Below are positions 331 to 53,744 of a DNA stretch of 64,000 nucleotides, piece after piece. The stretch's first letter is position 1. Each line of letters starts with the position of its first letter. The stretch spans positions 113,834,001 to 113,898,000 of the forward strand of contig CM059431.1 of assembly GCA_030390025.1 (NCBI GenBank), given 5' to 3'. The position numbers were made by a program, and so were the translations under genes. Source of the DNA: Squalus acanthias. Its lineage: Eukaryota. The notes below the pieces were generated by a model, which saw only the letters and a list, made by a program, of their open reading frames with translations, had not been told where the DNA came from and did no database searches.

Positions 331-950
331 TTGGTGGTTTGTCATTTCAGGCTGCTGGTTAACTTGTGGGAGCACTTCTCCGACATTAACTTTACTCAGG
401 AGCAATGTATGAGGCATCTTCACTTCACCCAAGAGCCTTTCACTGAGCTATGTCACCCGCTGCAGCCACAACTCCAGCCTTGCACCAGTTCATCGACAGC
501 ACTGCCTGTGGCTGTCAAAGTCACCGTGGCCCTTAACTTTTATGCCACAGGCTCCTTTCAGGCTGCAGCAGTTGTTATCAGCTACATATCATAGTTTGCA
601 GTCCAGCACTGTATCAGGAATGTCACTGAGGCTCTCAACAGCTATATTACTTTCCCTATGGATAGAGTGAAGCATGACAAGAGAGCAGGCTTCCCCAGGG
701 TGCAAGGTGCCATAGACTGCACCCACATTTCCTTGCCATCACCAGCCTGGCATCTTTATCAATCACAAGGGATTCCATTACCTCAAGCTACAACTGGTTT
801 GCAAACACAGGCAGCACATCATGTGGGTCTGTGCCCATTTTCCTGGCAGTATTCATGACTCATTCATCATGTGCCAGTCCTCTGTGCCACCTTGATTCCA
901 GCCAGGCTGTCACATTACAGGCTAGCTACTGGGAGACAAGGGCTATCCCA
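331..950 (+). pseudogene. HARBI1-like DDE transposase fragment of H1 (frameshifted, 3' part deleted)
   Basis: Peptides LPVAVKVTVALNFYATGSFQ, GFPRVQGAIDCTH and LLGDKGYP (925-950) lie in different frames. Confidence 0.9.
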
Positions 951-1959
951 TCCAGACATGGGCATTCTGACTCAGCTGGCTGTGTGGCACAAACAAGGGC
1001 ACTGTCGGAGTCTCTGGCGAGGGAGCAAGCATGCTGTCATCCTGACAGAGGACAGGACATGCCTCACCCATGGCGCCAAGGCCACTCACCTGGGGCTGTG
1101 CCTCAGCACTCCTGTGGCTCTGTGTGAGAACAGAGTGCAGGAGTAATGCAACGTTCTGGAAGCCCCTGTTAAAAGTGGCCCCCAGAGCCAAGATGGCAGC
1201 TGTGAGAGCTGTCAGGAGAGGTTCCATGAAGGTGGGCGCTACTGTCATATTGATAGAGCTGACCGGTCCATATTAGGCAGAATGGCCTCCATGCTTTGCA
1301 CACAGCTTTGACACAAGTTGGAGCTGGACTCGGCTATGCTCTGTGACATTGCGCACAAGCTCCCTGGCAGGCTGCCCAGTGCACCTGGGATATGTCCGTC
1401 AGCCTTCTTCAGTTGAATGGAACTTCGAAGTCAGCATTTTTGTCCTCTGCAACAGAGCTAATATGTGATCTCGCCCTACGGCGAGTTGGCATCTGTGGTG
1501 TCCAATCCCTCTGCCCTAGCTCCTGCACACTTGTGCCTGGTGAAGAACCATCCTCTAGCCTAGCCTCTAAAATCCGCATGATACCAGTATCTGAGCTGGT
1601 GCTTGCAAGGGTAAAATCGAGTAACGCTGACTCATTAGGAAGGCTGGCCTCCTCTTCCTGAAGTGGCAGATGTGTCTCCGCATCTTCAGCACCTGAAATG
1701 AAAGAGAGGGACAAGGGTTAGCTTTCAGTGTGAAGGGAGAGCAGAGAGAGAAGTGAAAGCATCTGTAGTTTGTCATGCAGTGTGTGTAGATTGTGATAGA
1801 AGTAATAAGGGAAAAGGAGGATAATGTGTGAAGAAACCCTGCCTGATGTCTCCAACAGCATTGCCAGTTGCCACGATATTGACTGTACCCCTGCCGAGAT
1901 GCCCAATACACTTTATTCGAGGGGAAGAGAGTTGTGGCCGACCTTCTTCTACAAGAAAG

Positions 1960-2898
1960 AATGATGCGGAGATGCCGGCGTTGGACTGGGGTGGACAAAA
2001 ATGAGAAGTCGCACAACACCAGGTTATAGTCCAACAGCTTTATTTAAAATTACAAGCTTTCGGAGCTATCGATCGCCCCTTCTTCAGGTAAAGTCACTAT
2101 GAGTGAATCTACAAAAGTTCACAGAATATAAACACAGAAAATGCAGAGATACAATCTTTCCTTACATCAAAGACACACCAAGAGCACAGCCAAGACAATG
2201 AGATGTGTCCCAGGGGGTCCAACGTGTCAAATCCTGCTGTCTGCATATCCTCTCCATATCCCTTCCTCTCTCTCCGTCCTTTTTGGGTTTGTTTTTTGGG
2301 GTTTTTTTTGTGTTTGTTTTTTAAAAACTGGAAAGACAGACAATTATGTCAAGTCACGTTCTGTAGCGTGACATGAACCCGATATCCCTATTGAAGCCGT
2401 CCTCATGAGTGCGGAACTTGGCTATCAGTTTCTGCTCGATGATTTTGCGTTGTCGTGTGTCTCGAAGGCCGCCTTGGAGAACGCTAACCCGCAGATCCGA
2501 GGCTGAATGCCCTTGACTGCTGAAGTGTTCCCCGACTGGGAGGCAACCATCCTGCCTGGTGATTGTTGTGCGGTGTTCGTTCATACGTTGTCTCAGTGTC
2601 TGCATGGTCTTGCCGATGTACCATGCTCTGGGGCATCCTTTCCTGCAACGTATCAGGTAGACAACGTTGGCTGAGTCACATGAATATGTACCATGTACCT
2701 GGTGGGTAGTGTCCTCACGTGTGATGACGGTATCTGTGTTCATGATCTGGCATGTCTTGCAGAGGTTGCCGTGGCAGGGTTGTGTGGTGTCGTGGTCGCT
2801 GTTCTCCTGACAGCTGGGTAATTTGCTGCGAACGATGGTACTTTTGAGGTTAGGTGGCTGCTTGAAGGTGAGTAGTGGAGGCGTGGGGATGGCCTTAG
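1960..2898 (-). mobile_element. 5'-truncated Penelope-like retroelement (Neptune-type: Cys linker plus GIY-YIG endonuclease)
   Basis: Open frame 2898->2354 reads ...FKQPPNLKSTIVRSKL...QPCHGNLCKTCQ...NVVYLIRCRKGCPRAWYIGKTMQTLRQRMNEHR...GFN; 8-bp TSD CAAGAAAG at 1952-1959 and 2899-2906. Confidence 0.9.
2050..2091 (-). ncRNA. Minimal type-I hammerhead ribozyme motif in PLE 3' end
   Basis: Minus-strand RNA UUAC-CUGAAGA-A-GGGGC(GAUCGAUA)GCUCC-GAAA-GCUU-GUAA: intact core, 5-bp stem II, palindromic AGCU stem III, 4-bp stem I. Confidence 0.8.
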
Positions 2899-3250
2899 CA
2901 AGAAAGGAGGGAGTGCATTGGTGACAGTCTTGTCAGGTTTTTAGAGAATGTGCCTGTCATGTTAGAATAACTGGTATGTAGTGTGTCAGATCTGAGGTGT
3001 GGAGAAGAGAGAGTTGCAAAAGTGGTCAATGTGTGAGTATGAGGAGAAAGAGGTGTAGTAAAGTATGGTGCAGTGACTGTAGGAGAGTGAAGGGTAGCAG
3101 GGTGAGGCTGAAGGTGGTGGAGATCTCCACAGAGTAAGAGAGTATTGTTACCGTGACAATTCTGGTGAGGTCATTGAACTTCTTTCGGCATTGCATCCAT
3201 GTCCTCAGGTAAGCTTTTAACATTTACCTGCTCTATGATATCTTCCCATT

Positions 3251-3712
3251 GAACATAAGAACATAAGAAATAGGAGCAGGAGTAGGCCATTTGGCCCATC
3301 GAGCCTGCTCCGCCATTCAATAAGATCATGGCTGACCTACCTCATCTCCACCTTCCTGTACTATCCCCATATCCCTTGATTCCCTTAATATCCAAAAATC
3401 TATTGATCTCTGTCTTGAATATACTGAACGACTGAGCCTCCACAGCCCTCTGAGGTAGAGAATTCCAAAGATTCACCACCCTCTGAGTGAAGAAATTTCT
3501 CCTCATCTCAGTCCTAAATGGCCGACCCCTTATTCTGAGACTGTGACCCCTGGTTCTAGACTCCCCAGCCAGGGGAAGCATCCTCCCTGCATCTACCCTG
3601 TCAAGCCCTGTAAGAGTTTTGCATGTTTCAATGAGATCACCTCTCATTCTTCTAAACTCTAGGGAATATAGGCCGAGTCTACTCAATCTGTCCTCATAGG
3701 ACAATCCCTCCA
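3251..3712 (-). mobile_element. CR1 LINE 3' fragment inserted in H1 ORF2 exon 1
   Basis: ORF2 C-terminus GLSYEDRLSRLGLYSLEFRRMRGDLIE...RNFFTQRVVNLWNSLP; (TTCTTATG)n tail. Confidence 0.92.
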
Positions 3713-4704
3713 CTGAAAATGCAATTATTGCCTGGAGGGCTTTCTGCCCGCTGGGAGCGGGGCGGGGGGTTGGTGGGAACAGAATCTCCCTCCTCCTGTC
3801 CACTGCCTGCACCACGGCCTCCAAGGCAGCCTCGGAAAGCCTTGGTGCCCTCTCAGTATACGCTGCTGCCATTTCTGTGTAGAGACCTGTGTCCCAATTG
3901 TCTGCAGCCAGAGTGCACCTCCCCTTTAAGAGGTGCTTGGTGCCATTAACTGGCATCAGATACATCCAATATCCGGCCCCACAAACAGGCGTGTGGCCAA
4001 TGACTCAAGATAATGAGCACGCAGCACGAATATTATGGGCTGCCTGGGACAACTCTTTTTATGACGTTGGGCCTGCCAGAAATCCCACCCCTCCGTATTG
4101 GCGATCTTCCCCTTAACTGTAAAACTCGTGGGCAGCTCGACTGTGACAGGATATTGTGGCCTGCCCATCAAAATGGTTCGAACCTCTCAAGGGCGAAGAG
4201 CACGGTCGCCACACTCATGCGGCGCCGCTTTGGTGCCCGAAGTGAAAATTGACCCTGATAATAATAGTCCCATCTGATTTGTTATTATTGGCATAATATT
4301 CTAGGCTGGTCGTATTGAGGAGAAAATACATTCAGACCGAGGGTAAAAATCCTGTGGATTTCAGTAAATCCCACTGCAGACTTTCAAACTTTCAACAAAA
4401 AAAAAATCTTCTTTGAATTTATCTAAATGATGTGGTTCTCAGCTGATTTCCACTGAGCCAGTTTATACATCAGTGGCGGAACAGGATGAGTGAAGTTACT
4501 GAGCTTGACAGCGTGTAGGAGCTGATGTAACATCAGCAGAGATGCAGTTATTAGCCAAGAGTGCTTCGATAATTATGTCATTTTAACTGCATAGAATAAT
4601 TCAGCTGCTTCATGCTGTTAGTTCCATCAATAGTATCAACACTCACCATTTAAACAAAATATTCATGGAAATAACAGAAGTGCTGTAGAATGAGACATGT
4701 GTTT

Positions 4705-4853
4705 GAACATGTACTTGAAGAGGACTAATTTGCAGGGTTATGAGGAAAAAGCTGGGGTCTGGAACTAAATTGGACGGCTCTTTCAAAGAGCCGGCACAGG
4801 CACGATGGGCCGAATGGCCTCCTTCTGTGCTGTAAGATTGTACGATTCTATGA
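4705..4853 (+). mobile_element. CR1 3' UTR/tail fragment
   Basis: GGGCCGAATGGCCTCCTTCTGTGCTG followed by ATTCTATG-type tail. Confidence 0.75.
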
Positions 4854-4925
4854 AAAGCAAAAGGACATTAATGTCGATCATAGCTTAAATAATTGACTCT
4901 GATTTTAAAAAGGGCTACTGATAGT

Positions 4926-5676
4926 GGCCCTGAATTTGTGGTCGGAGGCTTCCTGCGGGCGGATGCCTCTGACCAGCAAAAAATCTACAAACTTACCTGA
5001 TGATCCCGGAGGTTCGGACACTCGCGCTCCTGGGCCTCTATGCGTTGGCCTGTGTAGATGCCCATGCATCCCAGGGGCGCAGGCGGTTCGCAAGCGCCCC
5101 TGGGATCACGTGGGCTGGCCCAACCAATGAAAGAAAGGGATCCCCATTCATACTTATGAGGATTCCGTATGTACAGAAACCCCATAAGCATGAATGGGAA
5201 TACCCCCAAAAAATACACGTACACTTCAAATAAATTTTTTAAAAATCACATATTTAAAATTAATCAAAATGGCATTTAGTTAAACATTTAAAACAAAAAT
5301 GTAATTTTTTGGAAAATAAATGTACATGTTTTAAAGGGGCTAACAATAAACTTGCCTTATTTCACAGGTTTTTAAATGTATAAATTATTGAAAAAAATTT
5401 ATTTTTCTGTTCTTGAAAAGTCTTACCCCGGTAAAAGCAGGTCTTATGCCTGCTTTTACCAGGCATAAGAATTTCACGGGCATTCGCTGGGTAGAACTCT
5501 CCGCCCGCGGAGGCCCTTTTCCCGGGGATGCGGAGGAACTGTAAAGAAAATTCTTGACAGATCGCAAGTTCCAGGTTTTAGCGCATGCACCTTGCATACC
5601 TAAACCTGGAACTTGCGTGGCTCCTACGGGCGCGTGCGCACCTCGTACACACCCATTGGGTCGCAAATTACGGCCC
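4926..5676. mobile_element. Harbinger-type MITE A
   Basis: TIRs GGCCCTGAATTTGTGG / TCGCAAATTACGGCCC; flanks AGT/AAT; GC-rich arms around an AT-rich core. Confidence 0.75.
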
Positions 5677-9200: not shown

Positions 9201-10540
9201 ATTGTACCATAAGTATGTTTTGTGCTGAAAATATTACTTTTAAAGTATCTACACCACCTTTAGTCTTGCTACATTGACATTTTCCCTGTATGGTGACATG
9301 ATTAAAAATTCCTCTTTGGTTAGCATTACTGAATTAGTAACAACCTATTGACCAGATATTGAATAATCGGCAGTTGTTACTGTTATGAAGGGCATCTGAT
9401 GAAAATCTATGTATATATACCTCCACACCAAAACAATTCAACGTAATATATTGTATTCCTGTTAGACGTACAAGTGGTTTTCCACAGCTGTTCAATACTT
9501 AACCAAGAAGACTAGATTACTAATATACTATTAATTTATTTTGAAATGTACTGTTTTGTATTTAGGACAGGTTTGAACTGATTAACGGGCTTAGGATATA
9601 ATATTTACACTGACTAGGCTAGTACATAGAAATGAACAATCAGCAGATTAGTGCCTTTCTTCAGAATGGGGGTACAAAATTATCTAATGGAGAAATTAGT
9701 CTAATTACTATTATGCATAATTGAAACAAGCACCTAGATAAATAGCAAGGGAAAAGTTTAGCTTTCACAAAAAAACTCATATTTGCCAATGTATAATTAA
9801 GTGGAATTAATTGTATTGTTACATAGGAATTTAGACTTTATTCCCCCTAGTCCATTTGAACATTACTGCTTCATTCTCCTCTGATTAACTACCAATCATC
9901 TTGTTCATGTTATATCAGTAACAGAGTGTAATTGTAGATTGCTTCCTTCTGTAAAATGTTTCCTTCTTCTCATATTTTCCTTAATTTCTCTTCCAAAATG
10001 AACTTCCTGCTTTACTTCCTTCCTCCGCCACCCTCGTAGGATTTTTGCCTGGTAGACCAATGGAAGCCTCTGTGGGTGCCAGCTTTGACATTCGCTCACT
10101 AAGAAGCATGTTTGTCCAGTCCAGAAAGGGATCCATTCCCTCCTGACCCCTCGAAGCAGATTTTCCTTCCCTTCGATAAACAATCTTTGTTAAAACTGCC
10201 AAAACTCAGCAACTAACTGGAAAGCTCAAGTGTGAATGCCAGTCAATAATAGGGGTTAAGTTGCCATATTGGAACCTTGATCCAGCCTCTACGCTCAAAT
10301 ATATGTGAGCAGATTGGTGGACATGCTTAATTTATTCCTCCTTCATTGTTCCTCTAAATATACTATTCTGTTCACTCGTTCCTCTGCCTGTGTTGAAACC
10401 ATCTTCTACTCAAACAAATTTTTTCCTAGGACCTTAAAACCACGGAACTTCTTACTTCATTCAGCCTTCCCTTCCCCAGGCTTTCAAAATCCAAGCTTGA
10501 CATTACCTAGACACAGCTTCTTGATACATATTTATAATAA

Positions 10541-10730
10541 AGAGAGGAATTGCTGGAAATACACAGCATCTGTAAAGAGAAAAGGCAGGTTGAAACGTTT
10601 TGGGTGTGTAGCCCTTCATCAGAACTGAAGACGAGGTCTGATGAAGTTTACACCTTTTCCATATCATAGCCTGTGTTTTTTCTTTACAATTGCTATCTGC
10701 TTTTATTTCAGATTTCCAGCATTTGTAATT
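10541..10730. mobile_element. Old inverted pair of PLE 3' ends with degenerate hammerhead motifs
   Basis: CTTCATCAGA (10614-10623) and TCTGATGAAG (10637-10646) are inverted; left arm resembles the minus-strand PLE end and right arm ends TTTCAGATTTCCAGCAT. Confidence 0.6.
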
Positions 10731-10811
10731 TTTTCTTCAAATTTTTATGTTGTCTTCTCTCTTCACCTTTTGGTAGTATCCTAGAGTATGGTCTTTGGCT
10801 TCTCAACAAGC

Positions 10812-16558: not shown

Positions 16559-16815
16559 AAGCAAAATACTGCGGATGCTGGAAATCTGAAATAAAAACAG
16601 AAAATGCTGAAAAGTCTCAGCAGGTCAGACAGCATCTGTGGAGAGAGAAACAAAGTTAACGTTTCAGGTCGATGAACTGGAAAAAGTTAGAGATGTAACA
16701 GGTTTTAAGCAAGTACAGAGGCAGGGAAAGGGGAGAGGGGAGGGGAGGAATGAACAAAAGGGAAGGTCTGCAAAAGGATGGAAGGCAGGAGAGATTAAAT
16801 GACAAAAGGGATGAT
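16559..16815 (-). mobile_element. PLE 3'-end fragment with the hammerhead core deleted
   Basis: Near-identical to 21456-21720 but lacks the ~12 bp that contain CTGATGA. Confidence 0.85.
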
Positions 16816-17359
16816 AGGACTTCTTATGGTTCTATTGGATCCAACACTTCCCACTCAATCCATCCAATGTGAAGATTTACAAAATTTGACAACAAGCCAC
16901 ATACAGATATTGGGACCAGTGACCAATAGCTTGGTCAAAGAGGTAGGTAGGATCTACAAAGGATTTCCTCAGAAACTATTTTTCACACTAACCAGATGCC
17001 AGGAGTTTGCAGTTTCGTGGCTTGTGGATTCAGTCATTTGTTTTCTAGGTAATGTAAATGCTCCTGTCCAGGAGCAGACCGGAGGAGAAGTGAGTACTGT
17101 GGGCTTCACAGCTGCCGATTTGGCTAGAGGTAGGCCACATTCAGACTTCTGTAGCACGCGTCAATAACATTAAGGAAGTGAGCTCCCAGCATATGTTGTG
17201 CCCATAATGCTAATTCATGGGCAAGTTTTGTTTAATCTTACATCAAGACATTTATGAGTATGGAAACAGCAGAGTGAGCAAGATGAAGTTCTCACATCTT
17301 AATGTGGAGGTGCTGCTTATGCAATTATACCTCAGGTGGGTGGTAGTATTTCTAGAATT

Positions 17360-19446: not shown

Positions 19447-21161
19447 TGGGGGAATTTTTTGGGGGGTCAGCGGGGCCGTTTGGAGGTGGGTCGGCTGGGA
19501 ATTTTTTTTTGACAGCGGGTAGGTAACCTGCTGTCAACCCGCCTCCACGTTAGTCTCCCAGATGTCGGGTCTGTCGTCGCTGAACAGACCCGACACCAAG
19601 CGGCGGGGGAGGCAATTTACATCATTAGAGAGATTGTTAAGAGGCAATTAACTAGTATTTTATGCTTACCTTTAGATTTTTAGAGTTCGCCAACAGCTTC
19701 CCCACTGCTCGGGGATCACGTCAGGTAAGGAGGTCGGGTATTGTGTCAGCATGTGATTATTTCTAAACTTGACAGCTGCAAATGGTCTATAAAAGCTCCC
19801 ATTTCATAGGTCTTCACTTTCCAGGGTTAGAAGCTGTTGCTTACTGCACTTGGAAGACAGATTGAGCTTTATGTAGCTTCAAGTATTTGGAGCAAACTCT
19901 CTATCCAGTGTCACCTCATTGGAACAACCTCTCTCACCACTGACAGATCGCTTCTGTCATTTCAACTTCCCCTGCCATCTATTCCATCAGCATCGGTGCC
20001 CTAGAAAAAATCTCACCTTGGTCCTCAGAATCCCATCATGATCAGCCCGAACACCAGCAGCACCAGGCACACCAGCAACAACACCAACCTTCTCCGCAAT
20101 CAGTCATGCTGCACATGACACAGGGCATCAGCACCCGACAACATTGGTGCCCGGGAGGCCAGGGATGGCCTCACCATGGCCAGATTTACTTCACTTGACG
20201 CTGTACACCCTGGCTGCCACATGATGCACCAGGTTGGCACCACCCCACACCAACACCATAAAGCATCCCTACAATGCCCAAGACATTCCTTTCACACCCA
20301 TCACCATTGTGGGAGGTACCGTTATGTCTCACCATTCACTGAAACTCACTAAGACACTTCCAAAGGTGCACACAAATATGTCCAAGAACGCAAAGTGTTG
20401 AAAATAAAGTTTTCAATCTTCACATGAACATTGGCTAAAACACCCAAGTGGCTACCCTTGTGTGTTGTTAGTTGGTATGATTGGACTAGGATGAGGGTGA
20501 GTGTGAGGGGTGGCTAGTGAGATGGGGAAGTGATAATGTAGATAGAGAAGGATGGCTGGAGGTGCAAGGTAAGTTGTTGTGAGTAAAGATGTGCAGGAGT
20601 AGGGTAGGGAAGGCAGAGTGATGGTGATGTGATGAGTGGCACAGCAGGATGAGGTTGAGTGTGGCTTTGCAGTAACGTTTCGTGATCTACTGAGATCATT
20701 GAAATGTTTGCGTCACTGCAGTCTGGTCCTCCTGACAACATCCTGCTTGTGCCCTCCTGTGCAATGTGCAACCAGGCTGCATTGGTCTCCTGCGGAGGTC
20801 TCTTCCGCCCATGGGAAGGAAAGAGAACCTCCCTGCGTGCTGTGACTCCCTCCATAAGCATATGGAGGGAGTAATGGGAGAGCCTGGGTGCAGCCGTGCA
20901 CCTCTGTGCAGTGCTTGTCAGTGTTTGCAGCACCTCAATGCTGTAGAACACTGACAGCACAACTGTCAAAAACAATTTGCGCATGATCCCATCAAGTGAC
21001 GTCATCAGACCCGCTTCCTTCAATTGGCTGGGAAACGCGCTGGGCGGGCTTAACAAGCCGAATCAGCATAAAGTTCTTTTCACAGAGCGGGCTGGAGCCA
21101 GCAACAGAGTCGCACCCTGCCACCGGCACCCGGAGCCACCTCGGTAGACAAAATCGCGGCC
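19447..21161. mobile_element. Harbinger H4, internally deleted (H3-like family)
   Basis: Right end AAAATCGCGGCC resembles the H3 end; ACCCGCC motifs; CAG-rich transposase 5' remnant at ~19990-20170; MADF exon 1 on - (AAPRLSHYSLHMLMEGVTARREVLFPSHGRKRPPQETNAAWLHIAQE, ~20670-20910). Confidence 0.75.
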
Positions 21162-21455
21162 TTCATCTTCTGTCTGTTGTTCTCTTTCCATAGAACCTTT
21201 TGGGATTTTCCTATATACCCAATTTCCCCCTCCCCTTCCTCAAGGGCGAGAGCAGCTACAACCCTACCTTCCCAATCCCTTAGGATCATTACATTACCCT
21301 CGCATTCAGTTTCCGATGTCCCGTCATTATATAATGCATGAGATACCCACATAACAATCCTATCTAACTAGTGAACAGATTTAGCATCAAAATATTGAAG
21401 AAACCAACAGACATAGAACATTACAATTGTAACCAATTCCCTGCTGATGGCTACA

Positions 21456-21925
21456 AAAGCAAAATACTGCAGATGCTGGAAATCTGAAATAAAAACAGAA
21501 AATGCTGGAAATACTCAGCAGGTCAGGCAGCATCTGTGGAGAGAGAAACAGCGTTAACGTTTCAGGTCGATGACCTTTCATCAGAACTGGAAAAAGTTAG
21601 AGATGTAACAGATTTTAAGCAAGTGCAGGGGCAGGGAAAGGGGGGAGGGGAGGAAAGCACGAAGGGGAAGGTCTGTGATAGGATGGAAGGTAGGAGTGAT
21701 GAAATGACAAAAGGTATGATAGTACAAAGCAAAAGGAGATGGTAATGGACAAGTAAAGAAACAAAAGATGAGTTTAGAAGAAGTGTAAATGGGAATGGCA
21801 GAATCATCAACAGCTGCCATGTGAAAAAATAAGGGCAGAGGTTATGGTCTGAAATTGTTGAACTCGATGTTGAGTCCAGAAGGTTGTAAAGTGCCTAATC
21901 GAAAGATGAGGTGCTGTTCCTCGAG
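21456..21925 (-). mobile_element. PLE 3' fragment (GIY-YIG C-terminus plus 3' end)
   Basis: LEEQHLIFRLGTLQPSGLNIEFNNFRP* at 21842-21925; same terminus as the element at 41030. Confidence 0.9.
21553..21588 (-). ncRNA. Minimal type-I hammerhead ribozyme motif
   Basis: GUU-CUGAUGA-A-AGGUC(AUC)GACCU-GAAA-CGUU-AAC: intact core, perfect 5-bp stem II, ACGU palindrome. Confidence 0.8.
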
Positions 21926-24877: not shown

Positions 24878-26083
24878 ATGGGGGGCTGTACTGGCAGTCG
24901 ACCTCGCCCTCCAGGATCGACAGCGGAGGGAGCGGAGGCAGCGAGAAAGATTGCAAGATGTGGCCAGAGGGAGGAGGAGGGCCATCAGGGCTCTCAACAG
25001 GAGGCCTTACCCTCCGAGGGTATTCCAAGAGCACTTCTCCTACCTCCAATTAAGTGAGGAGCAGTGCATCAGAAGGCTTCGCTTCAGCAAGGATGTGGTC
25101 ACCGAACTCTGCCACCTCCTGCAGCCAGACCTCGAGCCTAAGATCAGGTCGACCATGGCTCTCTTAGTGGCAGTTAAGATCACCATCGCCCTCAATTTCT
25201 TCGTCAGTGGTTCCTTCCATTCTGCAACAGGAGATATAGCGAACATCTCGCAGTTTGCCGTCCATCGCTGCATCTGGGAGGTCACAGAGACTCTCTACAG
25301 TAGGAGAAGGGACTACATTTCCTTCCCCATCACCAGAGAGAAGCAGGACAAACGTGCATGTGGCTTTGCCAGGATAGCTGGTTTCCCCATGGTGCAGGGC
25401 GCCATTGACTGCACCCACGTGACTTTGTGGGCGTCCCATAACAATTGTGAGATCTTCTGTAACCACAAAGGCTACCACTCACTTAATGTGCAGTTGGTGT
25501 GCGACCACAGACAGCAAATCCTCAATGTCAATGCCTGCTATCCTGGCAGCAGCCACGATGCCTTCATCCTGTGCCAGACCGGTGTGTCAGCACTCTTCCA
25601 ACCACCACATCAAGCTCGCGGCTGGCTGGTCGGAGACAAGGGCTATCCGCTCTCCACCTGGCTCATGACTCCCCTTTGCAACCCCAACACTCCAGCTTAG
25701 CACTCGTATAATGAGAGCCATGCCACCGCCAGGAACAACATCGAGCAGACCATCGGGGTGCTCAAGCAACGGTTCCGCTGCATTGACTGCTCGGGAGGAG
25801 CCCTCCAGTACTCGGCTGAGCGGGTGTCCCATTTCGTGGTGGTCTGCTGCATGCTCCACAACTTGACCATCATGAGGGCCCAGCCCTTGAACCAGGGATT
25901 GCAGGACCACCTCAGGAAGAGGAAGAGGGAGAGGACAAGGAGGACGAGGACGAGGAGGAAGAGGAAGATGAGGAGGAGGAGGAAGAGGAGGAGGAGAAAC
26001 AGGAGCGAGGGAGGAGGCAGCCTCTCAATCGGCCTTCTGGAAGGGCGGTCCGTGACCGCCTCATCAGACTGCAGTTCCAATAA
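24878..26083 (+). pseudogene. HARBI1-like DDE transposase of H2 (intronless; two frameshifts, one stop)
   Basis: ATG 24878 with +1 G in a G run; GAIDCTH, GDKGY and IEQTIG catalytic motifs; TAG at 25698; frameshift near 25890 into a poly-E tail ending RDRLIRLQFQ* (TAA 26081-26083, overlapping AATAAA). Confidence 0.92.
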
Positions 26084-26248
26084 ATTAAACCCCAGATCTC
26101 CATTGCTCACCACATCCCCATCATTCCATCCCTGTCACAGGCCATATCACAGCGCACAGCTGAAATGAGAGACACCACAAAATCATCCAAAGCCAAATAA
26201 TACATTTATCAATAATCAGTGAACACATATGTACAACACCAATATTAG

Positions 26249-28144
26249 CTATTCACCCTTGTGCAATACCTTCGTGCCCCTCGTTACAGTGCCTTTGCCT
26301 ATTCTAGTGCTCCTACGAAGTGTTGGCCCAGTGGCTGCAGCCCGGCGGGTGGAAGGCTGCTGAATGTCCGTGCGGGAGACTTCAGATGGCCTTGCAGGAT
26401 GCCCTCGACCAGCTCTGGGCCTGGAGGGCCCGGCTGGAGACTGCACCACCTCAGCATGGGCGGCAGCAGTCTTGACTGGCTGGATGACAGGCAGCGACAA
26501 GGGCAATGGCGGAGTGGCAATGGTGGGAGCAGGAATGCTGTCATCCTGAGAGAGGACAGCAGCTTCCTGCTCCACTGACCCACTGCCACTCCCCCGGGAC
26601 AGCACCTCAGCATCACTACCAATCTGTTGGAGCACAGATTGCTGGCCTGCTGCGGCACCGTGAAAGCTGGTGGTAGAGCCAGCCATGATGGCAGCGGTCA
26701 GAGCTTGCATGGCATCAAGCTGAAACTGCATGAGAGCAGTCTGAGAATCGATGGCACCAAGCATAGACTGAATTACAGCACTAAGACGTTGCGTGGCTTC
26801 TGCCTGTGCTGCAATGGAAGCTGCGACATCGCCCATCACACGCGGCATGAGGTCTGGGTTGCCACGGTCTCTCTGGGAGTCCACCATCCTTTGCAGACTG
26901 CAAATGATGGGCTCCATGGTGTGCGCAAAGCTCTGTGCAATGTTGGAGGCGGACTCCTCCACGCTCCTTACCATTGCCGAGAGGCTCTCAGGCACCCTTG
27001 CCATTGCACCTATCATCTCTGTGTGCAGGCCCATCACCCTTCTTCTAAAGGCCTCCCCATCGAGGTCCTCATCTGAGTCCTGTGCAGCAGAAGTCGCACA
27101 TGAACTCGCCCTCCGTGGAGCTGACTCCCGAGCTACCCTTTCCCGCTGGCTTTGCTGCAGCCCGCTCGTCCCCTGTTCATCACCCTATGCAGATCCCTAT
27201 ACTATACTAGCCTCTAAAGAATGCGTAGTGCCAGTATCTGAGCTGGTGCCTGTGGGTGAGACATGCACTGACGCAGTGAGTTCTTCCTCCTCCTCCTCTC
27301 CCGCCTCGCTCTCTATGGTGCCCTCAGGGTCAGGCTACTCAGGTGCTTGCTCATTATCTGAAAACATAAAGGCACAAGAGTCGGGTTAAGGTGAGGGGAG
27401 GGGGCAGGAAGGGTAAAAGGCATGCATACAGCATGATTATCTGGAAAGTGGGAAAGGCTTGTGGGGTGAGGGGGAAGTGGGATGTGAGAAGAAGGAGTAG
27501 GGATGAACATACCGTTGTTGTCCCCAAGGGGGTCAACGTCGCCGGTGACCACGGCCCCCACCACCTGGCACCCAATAATTTGCAGCACTCTTTCCTCCAG
27601 TGCAGACAGTGGTTGGGTGTCAGGTTGTCCCCTGCCTGTGTGCTCCTGTTCTCTCCTGTTGTGTGCCACCTTGGCCTGCAAGAGAGAGGAAAGTGTGTGA
27701 GTGAGTGTGGAGCAATGTGTTTGGGAGATGTGCCTTCCATAGTTGAATAGCTGTCATTGTGTGCAAGGTGTGAGATGTGGGTGTGAGTGTTGGTAGGTGG
27801 AGATTGTTGGTGGGTGAGTGCTGGGGTGTGGTGCTTTGGCCAGTGTGTGCAGACTGTGGTTGAGATGGTGGTATGTAGCATTTGTTGAGGCATTGACTCA
27901 CCCTGACCACCCCAGTGAGGTCGTTAAATTTCTTCCTGCACTGTGTGTGGGTCCTGGGGACCACAGTGCTGCCTGAGACCTGCTGGTCTACCTCCCTCCA
28001 CATGGCGCAGAAGACTTGCGGCGAGGACCTCCTGCCACTTGCCGGGTACAGCACCGCCCTCCGTCTCTCCACAGCGAAGACCAACGCCTCCAATGCTTGG
28101 TCGCAGAATCTGCGAGCTCTCTCCCTGGGCCGTTGATCTGCCAT
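26249..28144 (-). pseudogene. Three-exon Myb/SANT(MADF)-coiled-coil ORF2 of H2 (504 codons; three in-frame TAG stops)
   Basis: Exons 28144-27902 (243 nt, ends QCRKKFNDLTGVVR|GTGAGT), 27675-27513 (TTGCAG|...|GTATGT) and 27357-26249 (TTTCAG|); total 1515 nt in a single frame. Confidence 0.88.
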
Positions 28145-41029: not shown

Positions 41030-41838
41030 GATAGCAAAATACTGCGGATGCTGGAAAATTGAAACAACAACAGAAAACGCTGGAAAAACTCAGCAGGCCA
41101 GGCAACATCCGTGGAGAGAGAAACAGAGTTAACGTTTCAGGTCGAAACCCTTCGTCAGAACTGAGAAAAAAGCAGGAAATGAAACAGATAAAAAAGCAAG
41201 GGGGAGGTTGGGGGGAGGAATAACTATGGTAAGTAGAGACATTAAGAGATGCTCAAGGCAAGACGAGATGGTAATGGGACAGGTTAAGAAACAAAAGGTG
41301 GCTAGAAGTGTGAAGTGTGAAATGCTGGCAAAATGAGAGACAGCTGCCGTAGGGGGAGAGAGAGAAAAAAAAGGAAAAAGGCACGAACCAAAAGGGTGGA
41401 TAAAATGTATATATATGTGGTAGGGGCCGAGGTTATGATCTGAAATTGTTGAACTCGATATTGAGTCCGGAAGGCTGTACAGTGCCTAAACGAAAGATGA
41501 GGTGCTGTTCCTTGAGCTTACGCTGAGCTTCCGTGGAACAATGCACGAGGCCGAGGACGGTGAGGTCTGAGTGGGCATGGAGCGGTGAATTAAAATGACA
41601 AGCGACCGGAAGCTCGGGGTCACCCTTACGGACTGAACGGAAGTGTTCCGCAAAGCGGTCACCCAATCTGCGTTTGGTCTCCCCAATGTAGAGGAGACCG
41701 CATCGTGAGCAGCGAATACAGTATACTAGATTGCAAGAAGTACAAGTAAATCGCTGTTTCACCTGGAAGGGGTGTTTGGGGCCCTGGAGAGTGTGAAGGG
41801 AGATGTATAAGGGCAGGTGTTGCATCTCCTGCGCTTGC
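41030..41838 (-). mobile_element. 5'-truncated PLE with intact GIY-YIG frame
   Basis: RFTCTSCNLVYCIRCSRCGLLYIGETKRRLGDRFAEH...SGLNIEFNNFRS* (stop at 41433); 6-bp TSD ATAGTC at 41024-41029 and 41839-41844. Confidence 0.92.
41127..41162 (-). ncRNA. Minimal type-I hammerhead ribozyme motif
   Basis: AGUU-CUGACGA-A-GGGU(UUCG)ACCU-GAAA-CGUU-AACU: intact core, stem II capped by UUCG, 4-bp stem I. Confidence 0.85.
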
Positions 41839-43028
41839 ATAGTCACCAAGAAATCAAATAGGGAATTCGGAAGAAACTTCTTTACCCAGAGAGTGGTGAG
41901 AATGTGGAACTCACTACCACAGGGAGTGGTTGAAGTGAATAGTATAGATGCATTTATTGGGAAACTAGACAAGCATATGAGGGAGAAGGGAATAGAGGGT
42001 TATGCTGATAGAGTTAGATGAGGAAAGACGAGAGGAGGCTCATGTGGAGCATAAACGTCGGCATGGACTGATTGGGCCGAATGGCCTGTTTCTGTGCCAT
42101 ATATCCTATGTAATTCTTAGTGGCCAATTTCATGGCAACAATGGGAAATACTTGCAGCCAGCTCCCTTGTCCACTTTCTCGGCCTGAAAAGGTATTTCAT
42201 AATGGAAGACTGAGAAGAAGGGAGGGAGAAAAATACTTTCAAATGAATGATTCCCATGCTCAGCAGTAAAAGAGTTATTTATACTAGCAACAGGTAGCTA
42301 GCAGGTGCTTTTATTATTTATATTGTAGATCTGCACTGTTCTTGTGCAGTGAAACATTGTGTGATACGTTTTCTATAAGTAGAATACATAGAATCCATTA
42401 TCCACTGGCCAAGTTATGTCTGACTATGGGGGATCAAGTATTTCTTCTTACAGCTCCTAGTAGTGGGGGAATTATGTCTAAACTTGGTCAGTCAGTGATG
42501 TTGAGAATGTTTACTCTCACTTATACATCGGTCATAGATTTTTTGGTAAAGCAAGAGTGGAGTTTGCCTTTTATACAGTATACACAGCAGAAAAAAGAGT
42601 GAAACACATTGAACTTTGAACTTATGAATATTGGGGCACATGGCCAACAGGTTCAGTTCAAAAGTCAACACTTCCCCAACCCTTCTAGGTATCAACATAT
42701 CCCTGGATTTTTGTAATGTAGTGTGCACACTGAAAGTCATAGAGGAAAGGGTAATTATCTCATAATAGCTCTGCTAATCTTTACCCCCCTAAAAAGCAAC
42801 ACATCCCAATATATAGGAAAAGGTTTCACTTTCATAATCACACAAACCCTTTCTTCAGCTGTCAAAAGGAAAAAAAGATATACTGCTAATGGACAACTAG
42901 ATAAATAAACAGCCAGGACTGAATTGGTTCCAAACACTACCGAGATGGTACATTCTGGTATTCTTTTCTGTACTGGTCTGGTATTGGTGGTATTCACAAA
43001 AAGCTTAAAACAGGGAAATAATAAGGGA

Positions 43029-43125
43029 TAACAACAGAAAATGCTGGAAACACTCAGCAGGCCAGGCAGCAACCGTGGAGAGAGAAACAGAGTTAACGTT
43101 TCAGGTCTGGGACCCTTTTGCTATT
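43029..43125. mobile_element. 97-bp PLE terminal fragment with internal inversion
   Basis: 14-bp TSD GAAATAATAAGGGA (43015-43028, 43126-43139); body on - while the terminus TTTTGCTATT is on +. Confidence 0.82.
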
Positions 43126-43828
43126 GAAATAATAAGGGAGTTAAACCCAGCCAGATCAACTCTTGACTGGTCCAACAATTGTCTGCACTTGAGACTCTAG
43201 TGCTGGTACCTGTGGTAGAATGTATAGCTTTTGTTAGTAGTTTCTCTTTGCTGGTCATATCCATTAGATATTATTATGGCTGCAGATTTTGTAAGAACAT
43301 AAGAATTTTCAGGAAAGGAAATGACTGTTTGGCCCAACAAGCCTGACCCTTTTGATAGATCTCAAAACAACCAACCCACCTTTTCACCATAGCCTACAGT
43401 CCCTTCTTTCTTCAGAAACACATCTTCAGTGGCCTTGCCTTGCAACATATTCACACGTCTAGTGTCCTTTGTGTAAAAAAAAGTCCCATTTGACTTCCCT
43501 TCTCAGTCTGAACTTCCCAATTTTCAACGTGTCCCGACTCCCCATCACTAGCACGAACCCTTCATCATAGTGAGCAATTTATCAGTTTGTTTTGTCAAAT
43601 TTCTTCAGAATTTTGAAAACTCCAGAATCTAAACTTCAAAGTAAAACTTCAAAAAGAAAATGCATCACATATTTTTAAACCTTGCTTTTAATTTATTGAA
43701 AGTCAATTGTATGTTAATGCCTAGGAATAAAAGTTTGCTGAGTTATACTTTTTAGGTGGAACAATTAAATAAAAGATGAATTAATTAATTATTCTGAACA
43801 CAATGCATTCCCTGCAAACAAACACATA

Positions 43829-47247: not shown

Positions 47248-47545
47248 TTTTTTATTCTCAGGATATGGGCAATACCAGCAAGGCAGCCTTTATTGCCCAT
47301 CCCAAGCTGCCCTGAGGGCATTAAGAGTCAGCTATGTAGCATGGGACTAGAGTCACATGGAGGTCAGACTAGGTAGTGGTGGTAGGTTTCCTTCCCTGAA
47401 GTATATCAGGCAACAAGCCGACAACTTCCATGGTCATTTCTCTATTGGTAGTCCACAAAATACCAGATCTATTGAGCTCAGTTTCATATATTGCCATGGT
47501 GGTATTTGAATGCAAAATCTCTGGATTGCTAGTCTAGCATCACAA
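47248..47545 (-). mobile_element. Decayed SINE-like element, same family as 55040-55402
   Basis: Reverse-complement similarity (GGGAAGGAAACCT, GGGATGGGCAATAAA, poly-A end). Confidence 0.6.
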
Positions 47546-49862
47546 CTGTTAGTCGATCATAATCTGACTGGTCTCACTGTCCTCAAACTAGGGAGGAGAA
47601 AAATCAAGAGTTCCAACTTCTGCTGGCTATCCAGCAACTCCTAATGCAAATGAGTACGTGCGTGTAGATTCCAGGCAAGGAGAAAACTAAGCTCAGCTGT
47701 AATCCCCACCGACAGTTGAATAGTTCTGCACTTGCTGTTCAGACTCAAGCATAAAAGATGCTTTTATATTTTCTACTTCTGGACCCACTAAGACTGGAGA
47801 TCAAAAGAACCTACCCCTCTTAGTCCTTGCGTTTTTGCATTTGTCTTGTGCAAGACCCACATTTTGGGAGCCCAGCAGCATGAGCACAGGCCTCATCCAA
47901 TATAAAAGCATCTAAAGACTACCACTGTCATCAATGGAACCATAGCTCAACATGGATAGGTTACCTTCGTCAAGAGAGATTGGATGACGAGAAAAGATTA
48001 GAGAAAAAAAAATAACACTTAATATTAGAAACAATTTGACCTGAATTCTTTAGATACTTACAAGAAGGGGAATTATTAATATATCAATTTTGTTTTCCTA
48101 TTAGTCATTAGATTTAAATTAAAACAAATTTTCTGGCAATAATTATGAGCCATCAGCAGGCGAATATAAATGTTAGATAGCCCTTTTTAAATTTTGCCTT
48201 TTAATCAAGCTACTAATCTTCTCACTAAGTAAGTGGTTAACCTTTAGAAAAGATTGCAGCTTCTTTTTCCCAATTCCAACAAGCAAATACACTTGAGACT
48301 GGTACCATTTCCTTCTCTGCACAGTTCCGGAAATAGCTTAAAGGTACATACTTGTAAACTTTGGCAAAGTGCTTTGAATCTATCTCTTGTGAGTAATCAC
48401 TTAGCCAACGGTTACAGCAAGGACTAACCAGTTCCTAATTTTTAATAACCCAAAAAGCCCTCAGAACTGGGAGAGTGGTAGATGTCTCCCCACCCCACCG
48501 CCCCCCCCACCTCCAACCCCCCCCAGCTCTGCATCTGCTTTTGCAATATGGTTGTAAAGAGGAAACTGTGGGGTCCACAGAGAGAGAAAATCAAAGATCT
48601 GATAATTAAATAAGCTTTCCAGAAGAGCGTGCTTATTATTATACGTAATTTGGCAACAGAAGTTCTGATATTAAGCAAAATATTGAAAGTGTTGATGGTG
48701 GTGGAGTGTTCTGGTGCTCACAACACATTGTGCTACAAAGTGCTATGATCCGGGAATGCACTCGTCATTACCCACATATTGCACTGCTGATCACTACCAT
48801 GCCGTTCTAAGATAGCTCAAGACAGAGGCCAAATGTCTTTTCAGAGGGATAGGACAGTCAAAGGTGCCTCAGCCCAACACATCACCAGGTGATCAGTTAC
48901 AGAATACTGCAAGAGTACGGCACAGCCCTCCTGAACCCAGTAAGGCCTAAAAGAAATTGGAAAAAAGTATTAAAATAATTAGCTAAAATTAATTAAATAA
49001 ATAGAGCATGACTGTAACAATTAAGACAAGTGAATCCCACCATTTGGATAATAGTGAGTCCCACCATTTGGAAAGAAAGGGAATTGAACTGAGCCAGAGG
49101 TATCCTCTCAACACTAATAATTTTTGAGTTAGTAAAATTGTAATTCTTTGTTTGTTTTAAAGTATTTATTTTTATTTAAACAGCGAGCAGGCAACACAGC
49201 ATCAGAGCAACTGGCTCCAAAGAGGTAAGTTGACGTCAATGGAGATCCAGTAATGAACTTGGGAACAGATTTCCTCTGGTTGCAATGTGTTACCAACATT
49301 GTAAGTGTAGCAGGAAGACTTTCTGGGCTGGATTTTGCCGGCACTCAGAGGGCGGGTTTGGAGACGGGTCAGAGGTTAAAATCTTTTTCATTGACAGCGG
49401 GTTGTGATCCCGCCGTCAACCCGCCTCCACGCTACTTTGCCAAGTGCCGGCTCTGGGAGTTCCGATCGGTCCCGCCACCAAGTGGCGGGAGAGGCACTTA
49501 AGGCAGTTAACAGCTTGTTAACTGCCTGGATAAGCCGATTTTAACAGGGTCTTGCAATTTTATAACATTTTCAGTGTGTTCCACGCCGTTCGCAAACCAC
49601 GCCAGCTGATTGTGTCGGATTCAGCATGTACCTGACTTCTTGAAAGCTGCATCTCCAGCATAAAGCGGAGCTCTAACATGGCTCACTTACAGATGACAGA
49701 ACTTTGTTTTTTCAGGTGTTGGAACACTTTTTGCAGGTCTACTGATCTTGTAAGTGGTGAAGCTGAGATCCATATGCACTGTGACCTCCTGGGAAAACCC
49801 TCTGGCCACATTGACTGAGCGCTTATAACTTCTAGTCCTCAACTGACATATATACCAGCAGC

Positions 49863-51265
49863 ATGGGAACCATTTATACCCTCTCATCCTGGTCCTCAGA
49901 ATCAGAGGAAGAGCAGCCTAGGCAGCAGCAGAATCAGGCAAAACAGCAGCAGCAACAGCAGGAGCGCCAACCTCCTCCTCACCCACCTGATGCTGCACAG
50001 GGCAGAGGTGGTCAGCGCAGGGCTACAGCTTGCTGCAGGAGATACTCCCAACACAGGGTTTACAGGCTGAGGATGAGATTCCGCAACTTGATTGAGCAGC
50101 AGTGCCAAAGGAGGCTGAGACTTTCGCGAGAGGTAGTCGCTGACATCTACGCAGTGCTGCAACAGCACCTGGAGCCCAGAGGAACAGGTGGACACCCCTT
50201 ACCAGTGGCTGTCAAAGCCACCACCACCCTCAATTTTTTTGCTTCAGGGTCCTTCCAAGGATCATCAGCAGACATCAGCGGCATCTCCCAGTCGGCCGCA
50301 CACACTTGCATCATGCAGGTTACCGATGCCCTCTTTGCAAAGGTGCACAACTACATCCACTTCTCCATGGATGAAGCAAGTGTAACCGCTCGTGCGGTTG
50401 GCTTTGCAAATATGGTAGGCTTGCCAAGGGTGCAGGGTGTCGTAGACTGCTCACATGTGGCTATTAGGGCACCCCATCACAACCCAGCTGTATTTGTCAA
50501 CCGCAAGGGCTTCCACTCCCTTAATGTCCAGCTGGTGTGTAACCACAGGAAGAACATTATGCAATAGCAAAATACTGCGGATGCTGGAAATCCGAAATAA
50601 CAACAGAAAACGTTGGAAAAACTCAGCAGGCCAGGCAGCATCCATGGAGAGAGAAACAGAGTTAACGTTTCAGGTCGAAGACTTTTCGTCAGAATTGGGA
50701 CGAAAGGTCTTCGACCTGAAACGTTAACTCTGTTTCTCTCTCCAAGAACATTATGTATGTTTGCGCCAAGTTCCCTGGCAGTTGCCATGACTCGTTCATC
50801 CTGCGGCAGTCTACTGTGCCTCAGCTGTTCAATCTGCAAACCCAACTTTCCAGATGGCTATTTGGAGACAAGGGCTATCGCCTGAAGACGTGGCTAATGA
50901 CGTCGTTGAGAAGGCCATCAAACGAAGCTGAGGAGCGGTACAATGCGAGCCACATTTCCACCAGAGCCATCATCGAGCAAACCATCGGCTTGCTCAAAAT
51001 GCGATTCAGATGCCTCGACAGATCAAGTGGAGCCCTACTCACCAGCCAGGGTCTCAGCATTATCGTTGTCTGCTGTGTACTGTACAACTTCGCTTAGCAG
51101 CGTGGCGTCCCGCTGCCTGAGAAACAAGTGGCTCAGCGCAGAGCCTCCTCCTCAGAGGAGGAGGAGGAAGACCTTGCGGAGGCAGATGCGCCAGTTCCAC
51201 CAGCACGTGAGCACATTGCTGCCCGTTATGCAAGGGATGCACTAATCGATGCCAGATTCGATTAA
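49863..51265 (+). pseudogene. HARBI1-like DDE transposase of H3, disrupted by a mini-PLE
   Basis: GVVDCSH, GDKGY and IEQTIG motifs; removing the 194-bp insert-plus-TSD joins ORFs 49863 and 50753 in frame; one remaining TAG (51095); ends RDALIDARFD*. Confidence 0.92.
50562..50743. mobile_element. 182-bp fold-back mini-PLE with two opposed hammerhead motifs
   Basis: 12-bp TSD AAGAACATTATG (50550-50561, 50744-50755); 45-bp inverted repeat 50646-50690 / 50699-50743 with one mismatch and an 8-nt spacer. Confidence 0.92.
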
Positions 51266-51519
51266 GTTTATGAAGCAAACACATGTGGCTTCTTAATACA
51301 CCATACACAATGTACAATAAACTGTGGGTTCCTATCACTCTCACCACCATCATTACAGATGAAAGGTGCCCTGACACCTCACTGTGCCACTTCCATTTCT
51401 GGGCACACATAGGTCAGCTCTTTGAATGTTTGCCATCGCATTTCTTTATTGAAATTGAAATGGCGATGATTATATTAAAGATGTATTGCATCAAAACACC
51501 CAAGTGACTACCCTTGTGC

Positions 51520-53458
51520 CTATAGGTGCTTAATCATTCTCTTACACGTGCTTCTATGCGGTGCTTCCCCTGTGGCTTCAGCAGATGTGGAGGCACCTTG
51601 CTCACTTTCATGCTGCTCCTGCTTCGACACCTTTGGCGGGCGTCCTCTGGGTTTGCGAGCCTGGGAGGGCTCGGCAACAGTCTGCTCCTCCTGCGACTGT
51701 GCAGGGGCTGAGACGGCCATCTCAGTTGGGTGAGGACTCTAGTGGGGCTCTGACCGAGGGCTCCGTAGTGGCATGGTCGTGTGAGCACTTGGAGAGGAGC
51801 CCACACTTCCTTGTTGCCTGCCACCAACATCCCTCTCATGGGTCAGCCACACTTCAGTGCTAGCAAGTGGCTGGACAGCACCTTGCTGCACATCAGGGGT
51901 GGCCATGAGAACCCGTATCTGCACTGGCAGTCCTCCTCAAAAAGGACGTCCATGAAGCTCTGGTCTCTCTGCTCAATAGCTGCTCATCACTCCTCCAGCG
52001 ATGTCAATCTATTCTGAACAGTCACCATGTTTTCCTGACTCTGGCGACTTATTTCCTCCATGACCGTAGCCATCATTTCCATGGAGGTTGCCATCCTATC
52101 CATGGTGGTGCGTTCATGCGCCATTGCCTCCACAAAGGCAGTGCTCATGTTAGAGATGGACTCCTCCATTCTCTCCACACTCGCAGTTACCCTGGTTGCA
52201 AAACCTGCCAGAGACTCCTGCACTTGTTCATGGAATTCCAGCACCGCTCTCTTTCTGGATGGCCCCAGAGGCACAGGGTCCACATGCAGCTGAGCAGAGC
52301 TGGGAGCACCCTACGGCCTCCAACGAGGACTCTCCACTGCTGTCCCTGTCTCCACCATCTGCTGAGGTTCACTTGTGAGCTGTGATACACCAGGTGACAA
52401 CACTACTCTATCTCGCGAAGGACCCACCGAGGTGTGCATCTCTGCGCTGGTGCTGGGTGCGCTTAATTCTGCTGACGCTGCGCCCTCAGAGGTTGCAGCT
52501 TCCTCTGAGGAGTCTTCCGGCTCTTCCTCCTAGACAGTGGGGAGGGGGGCTCTCGATGGTCCTGTGGGGGAGTAAAGGCATGAGTTAGACATGTGATATT
52601 AACGTAGCATGCACATCGAATTGTGCAGATGATCATAACTCAATCTGTATGTGCATCAGATGCCATATCAGTCACTCATGCAATGTAACTGAGAGGGCTG
52701 CAAATCTATTCTGTCACCAGCTTGCTCTACTGCGCCCGTCTGACCGTCCCCCACTTCCAGATCCTCAGCTCCTCCTACGATCTCCAGAGCAGCCTCCTCA
52801 GCGGTGGTCAGCTGGGCAATGGAAGGTGGACCTCCTCCTGTCCTGGCCCTCTCCCTCTTATTGTGGGATCTCTTTTCCTGCAATGAGGGACACAAGCGGA
52901 GTTGGAGTGAGAATGTTCGAGTGAGTATAGAGAATCCATAGCATAGATGCTTAGAGAGAGACAAAGATGGAGTGAGGTGCCAATACCAAGGGCCCTCCTT
53001 GTGCGTTGTTAGTTGTTGGCATTGCATAACAGTGATAGCGAGTGTGAGGGTGCATTGTAGAATAGTGAAGTGACTCTGTACATAGAGAGAGAGGGATAGT
53101 TATGGGTGCAAGGGATGTAAGGGTAAAGTGGGATGTGCAGGAGTAGATTGACAATGCAGAGTGCTGGTGATGAGAGGAGATGGGGAGCAGATTGAAGGTA
53201 AGTGTGATGTTATACTCACTTTTGCTGAGTGTACCAGGTCATTACACCTTTTTCTGCACTGGACCCAGGAGCGAGCACACAATGATCTGGAGCTCACCTC
53301 CTCAGCAATTTGCAGCCAGGCTCCTTTGCTTTGCTGAGAGGCTTCCTCCGTCTGGATGAGGGGAAGAGTACCTCCTGGCGCCCTCTCACTCCCTCCACAA
53401 GAACATGGAGGGAGTCATCATCAAAGCGGGGAGAGGCCTTAGCTCTTGCAGCAGTCAT
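51520..53458 (-). pseudogene. Three-exon Myb/SANT(MADF)-coiled-coil ORF2 of H3 (decayed)
   Basis: Exon 1 53458-53220 (MTAARAKASPRFDDDSL...WVQCRKRCNDLVHSAK|GTGAGT, one frameshift), exon 2 52877-52718, exon 3 from 52561; same intron phases (0, 1) as H2. Confidence 0.82.
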
Positions 53459-53744
53459 GGCAACAATTTCAACAAGGAGAAGCAGCAGGAAAGAATAGAT
53501 TTGAAACAATGCTGCATGGGCCCCTTAAATACAGCTGGCTGACAGACGTCAGCAGAGGCGAGCAGCAGACCTGAAACCACTAATTGGCCTGGGTAGCGCG
53601 CACGGACACATTAAGTAGGCCACTTGAGGCAAAATGCAGTTTCTGGCCGGCTGAAAGTGGAGGCGGGACCGGAACCCGCCGAACATCAAACCCGCACCCA
53701 ACCCGCCTCCATTAATAAAATCACGGCCTCTATCTTTGCCATTT

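Follow-up and report, generated by a model that had tools for sequence, protein, structure and literature searches.

A 182-bp insert at positions 50562–50743 of the window (the whole 64,000-nucleotide stretch analysed here) reads, on sequence comparison, as two 5′-truncated ends of one Penelope-like element (PLE) family that are joined head to head and carry a tail on one side only. We consider it highly probable that this fold-back is a recurrent by-product of integration, dead on arrival and not copied as a unit. The layout is already published, and the locus is one of thousands of inert by-products. Across the family, the pattern forms a natural record of PLE integration, which supports priming at two sites in vivo and carries no sign of ribozyme-cleaved RNA as template.

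Anatomy of the insert and its Harbinger host

The insert interrupts a plus-strand copy of a Harbinger-type DDE transposase that has decayed (Pfam DDE_Tnp_4; approximately 49851–51265, delimited by Pfam and frame reading), with DDE_Tnp_4 positions 1–41 before the insert and positions 45–136 after it. According to the initial annotation, removing the insert restores the transposase frame. The frame does open across the site once the insert and one TSD are taken out, but a second stop at 51095 means that no intact gene results. The 12-bp TSD described in the same annotation, AAGAACATTATG, is present in two identical copies, one on the left at 50550–50561 in Harbinger coding sequence and one on the right at 50744–50755. 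Both were recovered by repeat search, and the left copy is additionally delimited by empty-site joints: in 4/4 sequencing runs, all from other organisms, contigs pass directly from 50562 to 50757 and so show related Harbinger copies with the site unoccupied. The second gene of the host Harbinger, probably Myb/SANT-like, is broken and lies on the opposite (minus) strand at 51400–53500. Further Harbinger-like copies with 64–70% identity occupy 25029–26645, 370–1141, and 19902–20875 of the window.

The first arm (arm A, 50562–50698, minus strand) comprises the 3′-terminal 137 nt of the PLE terminal repeat, identified by comparison with other copies in the window; it shares 89–90% identity with those at 41031 and 21454 and includes a tail of ∼35 nt (about 50562–50596). 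It contains a minimal type I hammerhead motif (50660–50696, minus strand) with the full core CUGACGA / GAAA-CGUU, following the motif definition in PMC4209133. Sequence comparison identifies the second arm (arm B, 50699–50743, plus strand) as a 45-nt copy that starts within the hammerhead core, lacks the tail, and shares 1 nt of microhomology with the target where it ends. The near-perfect 45-bp inverted repeat reported earlier was recovered as 46 nt with one mismatch (50645–50690 / 50699–50744); 45 bp lie within the insert, and the last of the 46 pairs uses the first TSD base. Between the repeats is an 8-nt apex (50691–50698), which repeat search and junction parsing assign to an unpaired continuation of arm A. 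The apex contains no clearly non-templated bases. The junction lies between 50698 and 50699.

The parent family and the recurrence of fold-backs

The PLE repeat has at least four more clear copies in the window (80–94% identity), and a 20-nt PLE core is matched exactly at 47,275 places of the 3.71-Gb genome, its reversed control at 0. The longer window copy at 41031 reaches a GIY-YIG domain (Pfam E 1.9e-5), which is preceded by a C-x4-C-x2-C motif that we read in the translations of both the window and one further locus (L035). Such a cysteine linker motif before the endonuclease is described in PMC8557442 as a feature of the Neptune/Nematis clade. Together, the domain and the motif point to an endonuclease-bearing parent, probably an autonomous PLE of Neptune or Nematis type. 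Among the matches listed on contig 1, same-strand hammerhead motifs are spaced ∼3.17–3.31 kb apart, likely the full-length unit; a spacing of 1.67–1.70 kb, seen in four cases among the first 100 listed places, perhaps reflects a deleted non-autonomous derivative. Two RNA-like runs of other organisms hold much PLE-end sequence in their contigs, with a depth that is summed over copies and thus uninformative on the locus. Among the contig matches listed from these two runs, none spans the insert junction. A search with window 50000–51300 listed no RNA run that contains it (best share 0.46) and none of this organism, and so gives no evidence on expression.

The initial annotation had proposed, as one of two options, a retrozyme-like mini-family, for which independent copies of the same junction would be the sign. 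A search of 3.7 Gb with a 21-nt junction pattern, allowing at most one mismatch, returned the exact junction once and a single one-mismatch place (locus L051, G000:C22:7013560-7013920). The latter is a member of a different subfamily; a 17-bp TSD of its own flanks it, and its second arm is longer and reaches the tail boundary. It also carries a 25-nt stutter duplication of the 5′ half of the ribozyme ahead of the inversion, with both repeats ending at the same base. From its sequence, we read this locus as a separate event that happened to share the register of the insert.

A broader DNA search scored 40 of 2756 candidates, and the best 30 represent 29 distinct loci; as these were picked by likeness to the insert, they yield no frequencies. 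All 29 are fold-backs with unrelated flanks, each a separate insertion, and an automatic search found a flanking repeat of at least 10 bp in 23 of them. In a TSD search of 12 unselected PLE copies, about four had convincing partners. Junctions could be parsed in 26/30 cases (the one-mismatch locus included) and gave 25 distinct strings, or 22 junctions after point variants were merged by eye and opposite polarities kept separate. Among the 28 other loci, 23 have a second arm that stops at about −25 to −39, counted from the 3′ end, as judged from alignment ends that are blurred by TSD overlap. In the insert it ends at −85, and six of the 29 loci, the insert included, are atypical in this way. 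One junction class is a caveat: it has 176 exact matches and is centred on the natural mini-palindrome CAG-TT-CTG. Subfamily variants, second-arm end, and junction polarity all differ among the six loci of this class that were inspected, a scatter that, as far as six of 176 loci can indicate, fits repeated formation favoured by the mini-palindrome.

Inverted insertion is a normal mode of this PLE family. Frequencies were taken from the first 100 places listed (contig 1), 200 kb evenly spaced samples, and the window. Eleven head-to-head pairs within 2 kb occur among the first 100 core places listed, where 0.6 would be expected by chance. Their inner gaps fall into two sets, 10–37 nt in five pairs and 352–1648 nt in six (P about 1e-3 even under one exponential). 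Extrapolation from five pairs per 100 places gives 2,364 short fold-backs genome-wide (95% range 777–5,334). By hand reading of the first 100 places listed for another 20-mer, which starts at the cleavage site, the distance between cleavage sites is 34–83 nt in eight pairs and never below 34, and the next four pairs lie at 460–1122 nt; the two cleavage sites of the insert are 62 nt apart. In one minor PLE subfamily, 26/100 arms lie in 13 head-to-head pairs within 2.3 kb (first 100 listed places, hand reading). An older fold-back of a diverged PLE subfamily occupies window 10536–10734, and its apex is likewise at the 5′ edge of the hammerhead.

The breaks concentrate within the ribozyme, and most lie at its 5′ edge rather than at the cleavage site. 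Genome-wide, of 7,943 core matches, 6,742 (84.9%) keep eight more bases on the 3′ side, as against 4,949 (62.3%, with three positions relaxed) on the 5′ side; a further-upstream step in one subfamily retained 1,861/2,288 (81.3%). Up to 23–27% of arms end at the 5′ edge, a figure that upstream variants outside the pattern would reduce. Many breaks sit within helix II. There is no large loss at the cleavage site, where a 20-mer starting at that position has 50,333 matches and one reaching 13 nt upstream has 47,275. An earlier measure of truncation from two 20-mers (11,093 vs 6,857 matches) was discarded because only four of the first 100 places overlap, so that different subfamilies were sampled. 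The suggestion that the insert is a by-product formed right at the ribozyme is supported as regards the ribozyme as the place of the break; within it, the break is at the 5′ edge, and the predicted cleavage site lies about 30 nt downstream. In searches of mostly open-access main texts, we found no published report of a hot spot at the hammerhead 5′ edge.

Formation of the head-to-head joint

The anatomy of the insert suggests the following sequence of events. The PLE protein would nick both strands of the Harbinger copy 12 nt apart, a stagger that the observed TSD points to. Reverse transcription from the tail end would then copy 137 nt and halt just beyond the hammerhead. A second copy, observed to lack the tail, would be laid from the opposite side and joined to the first head to head within the ribozyme. 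For the class as a whole, the likeliest route is that a PLE dimer primes at both nicks from two start sites on the RNA, that the reverse transcriptase stalls or jumps in the structured, palindrome-rich ribozyme, and that end joining unites the two cDNAs. Fold-backs arise independently at thousands of loci, and the product is not copied onward as a unit.

Biochemical work on a related enzyme offers a close parallel. In the in vitro study of Anolis Poseidon by Frangieh et al. 2024 (PMC11167929), both strands are nicked and extended, and two start sites delimit the tail; insertion as described there proceeds without need for ribozyme cleavage, and RNA ends were not seen at the site of cleavage. 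The one-sided tail layout at 23/28 other loci matches the two start sites and both-strand extension of this purified PLE. Within the ribozyme, two sequence features suggest that the enzyme jumps: the stutter at the one-mismatch locus and a 12-nt deletion inside the hammerhead of a PLE end at window 16560–16820, beyond which the sequence continues upstream. The 5′-edge hot spot is a modest lead on PLE integration that can be tested in the existing in vitro PLE system.

Two-site priming alone does not explain the insert itself, since its second arm ends at −85 and not at the tail boundary. It is possible, though we hold it the less likely course, that a single tail-primed cDNA ended at the edge of the ribozyme and snapped back to serve as template for 45 nt of its own sequence, before the second end of the target captured it; the by-product would be of the same class, with different chemistry. 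The insert and 5/28 other loci have second arms off the tail boundary as this would allow, one locus (L038) has just ∼5 nt of inverted sequence past the same edge, and self-priming has been proposed for palindromic PLE junctions in PMC3846280. Variants are also shared between arms: 11 are shared and 49 arm-specific in 1939 columns, and a C/T site is concordant in 81/100 listed junctions by hand count, as against about 51 expected. This concordance is as compatible with self-primed copying as with two RNAs of a single master, and does not separate dual priming from snap-back. But the insert junction offers no pairing capable of priming, and self-copying does not predict the tail-boundary ends seen at 23/28 other loci. 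Moreover, an insertion at window 43015–43140 (the copy at 43028) has a 13-bp TSD and a tail-less arm (to about −122) that faces 11 nt of tail; as its arms do not overlap, two priming events are needed.

A more doubtful alternative moves the cause of the hot spot from the polymerase to the template: the template RNA would truly begin at the breaks, for instance through a 3′ splice-site-like signal just ahead of the hammerhead, instead of the polymerase stalling in structure. The window copy at 21454 does have a branch-like CTAAC, a pyrimidine tract, and an AG directly before the hammerhead (21584–21620, minus strand), which may be an intron end. Survival falls across exactly this 8-nt step, and the intron end of D. 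virilis Penelope is mapped in PMC4209133 to the 5′ end of helix I. The insert, however, has AA in place of AG, and no common spliced-leader sequence appears in the 26 junctions or among the loose ends listed for the RNA-like runs, where a further 1073 lay outside the listing. Numerous breaks inside helix II also count against an RNA end, as do the 16560 deletion and the 25-nt stutter, which would be enzyme jumps inside the ribozyme. We retain stalling or jumping on a two-site-primed template as the preferred account of the class.

The hammerhead motifs, possible functions, and known systems

The minus arm has the complete core reported for it (CUGACGA at 50692–50686 and GAAA-CGUU at 50671–50664), with predicted cleavage between 50664 and 50663. 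The A–C mismatch noted in helix II is present; a second A–C mismatch, in helix I, had been overlooked. On the plus arm, stem II is perfect (AGGUC/GACCU) and the core is reduced to GGGACGA, just as annotated. This string is the junction itself, with GG from the end of the minus arm and GACGA from the start of the plus arm, and C3 and U4 are absent. A C3G change abolishes activity of the Anolis ribozyme, as reported in PMC11167929.

Folding, proposed with the initial annotation as a check, gave −100.7 kcal/mol for the plus strand and −100.2 kcal/mol for the minus strand (z about −16.5), and 0/200 shuffles were as stable. Enforcing the hammerhead helices costs 55.9 kcal/mol over the hairpin, and the isolated minus-arm motif folds at only −2.9 kcal/mol. 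Helices I and II are not predicted to form in the transcript, and in the minus transcript the pair probability of helix II was <1e-6 at 14/14 nascent lengths tested. A Rfam scan of 48000–53000 returned 15 matches up to E 10, of which none reached the gathering score (best 36.8 bits vs gathering 100) and none was to a hammerhead family. With the head-to-head geometry, transcription from either side produces the antisense copy before the motif, so that the ribozyme is predicted not to fold. The models make ribozyme cleavage at the insert unlikely: one core is cut off, and the other carries a mismatch in each of two helices and always follows its own antisense in the transcript. A single minimal hammerhead motif is reported not to cleave (PMC4209133). 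Minimal motifs need a same-strand partner, and opposed motifs cannot provide one.

Might the motif or the hairpin nonetheless serve a function? One reading, which we think rather unlikely, makes the PLE hammerhead a brake on the element's own reverse transcriptase: ∼1/4 of the cDNAs reaching the 5′ edge would stop there, and paired stops would seed thousands of ∼45–100-bp perfect hairpins of PLE sequence that yield dsRNA against the family under host read-through. If true, this would provide the motif, for which the literature names no clear role, with a function and account for the higher copy numbers possible in ribozyme-free PLE clades. For the insert alone, it had been suggested that the hairpin might feed small RNAs against both the PLE and the host transposase. 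For the transposase as a target there is no support, as the stem is PLE sequence throughout. Against the PLE itself, a role as dsRNA source is possible by analogy with transgenic D. melanogaster, in which Penelope inverted repeats gave siRNAs according to PMC3681739. That the locus is a functional hairpin RNA gene, whose small RNAs silence the PLE family, seems improbable to us: the stem is very stable and has the Drosophila precedent (PMC3681739), but at 45 bp it is short and its arms have already diverged at one site, the locus lies within a decayed transposon, no Rfam family is matched at gathering score, and the transposase cannot be the stem's target. Similarly improbable is the retrozyme-like non-autonomous mini-family, in which hairpin units are transcribed and re-inserted and the insert is a truncated daughter: the class with 176 exact matches and the extrapolated thousands of short fold-backs would suit it, but the insert junction has neither parent nor sibling, the six inspected loci of that class differ and their CAG-TT-CTG favours repeated formation, and retrozymes require tandem same-strand ribozymes.

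The closest known counterparts of the insert are the inverted insertions of endonuclease-bearing PLEs. Craig et al. 2021 (PMC8557442) describe an inverted 5′-truncated copy beside the insertion, with a 30–40-bp tail at one end only, and Arkhipova et al. 2013 (PMC3846280) report repeats in head-to-head arrangement whose junctions are palindromic and whose TSDs measure 8–10 bp. The features that these accounts share with the insert are head-to-head truncated copies, a tail at one end, a TSD of about 8–17 bp, and palindromic junctions. The insert differs in that both arms stop in the ribozyme, so that no ORF lies between them, and in that its second arm ends ∼50 nt before it would reach the tail boundary, the usual end point. 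Poseidon (PMC11167929) belongs to another clade, and the sections of that paper covered here do not describe joined short cDNAs or a 5′-edge stop.

The motifs themselves resemble the minimal type I PLE hammerheads of Cervera and de la Pena 2014 (PMC4209133), which have a CUGANGA/GAAA core, complete here on the minus arm but lacking C3 and U4 on the plus arm, and likewise an extra base before helix II and a palindromic CG that replaces helix III. That paper reports motif pairs 100–700 bp apart on opposite strands; by comparison, the insert pair is closer (62 nt between cleavage sites), has A-U instead of G-C at 10.1–11.1, and is damaged in both copies. Non-LTR retrozymes, as presented by Cervera and de la Pena 2020 (PMC7229834) and Li et al. 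2026 (bioRxiv 10.64898/2026.07.22.740005), are similarly short, non-coding, hammerhead-bearing, and derived from PLE terminal repeats. They are dispersed in many copies of a unit and, by the criterion of Li et al., arranged as head-to-tail tandems with at least two intact same-strand ribozymes, whereas the insert has opposed motifs on opposite strands, no tandem, and a single-copy unit whose exact junction occurs once genome-wide.
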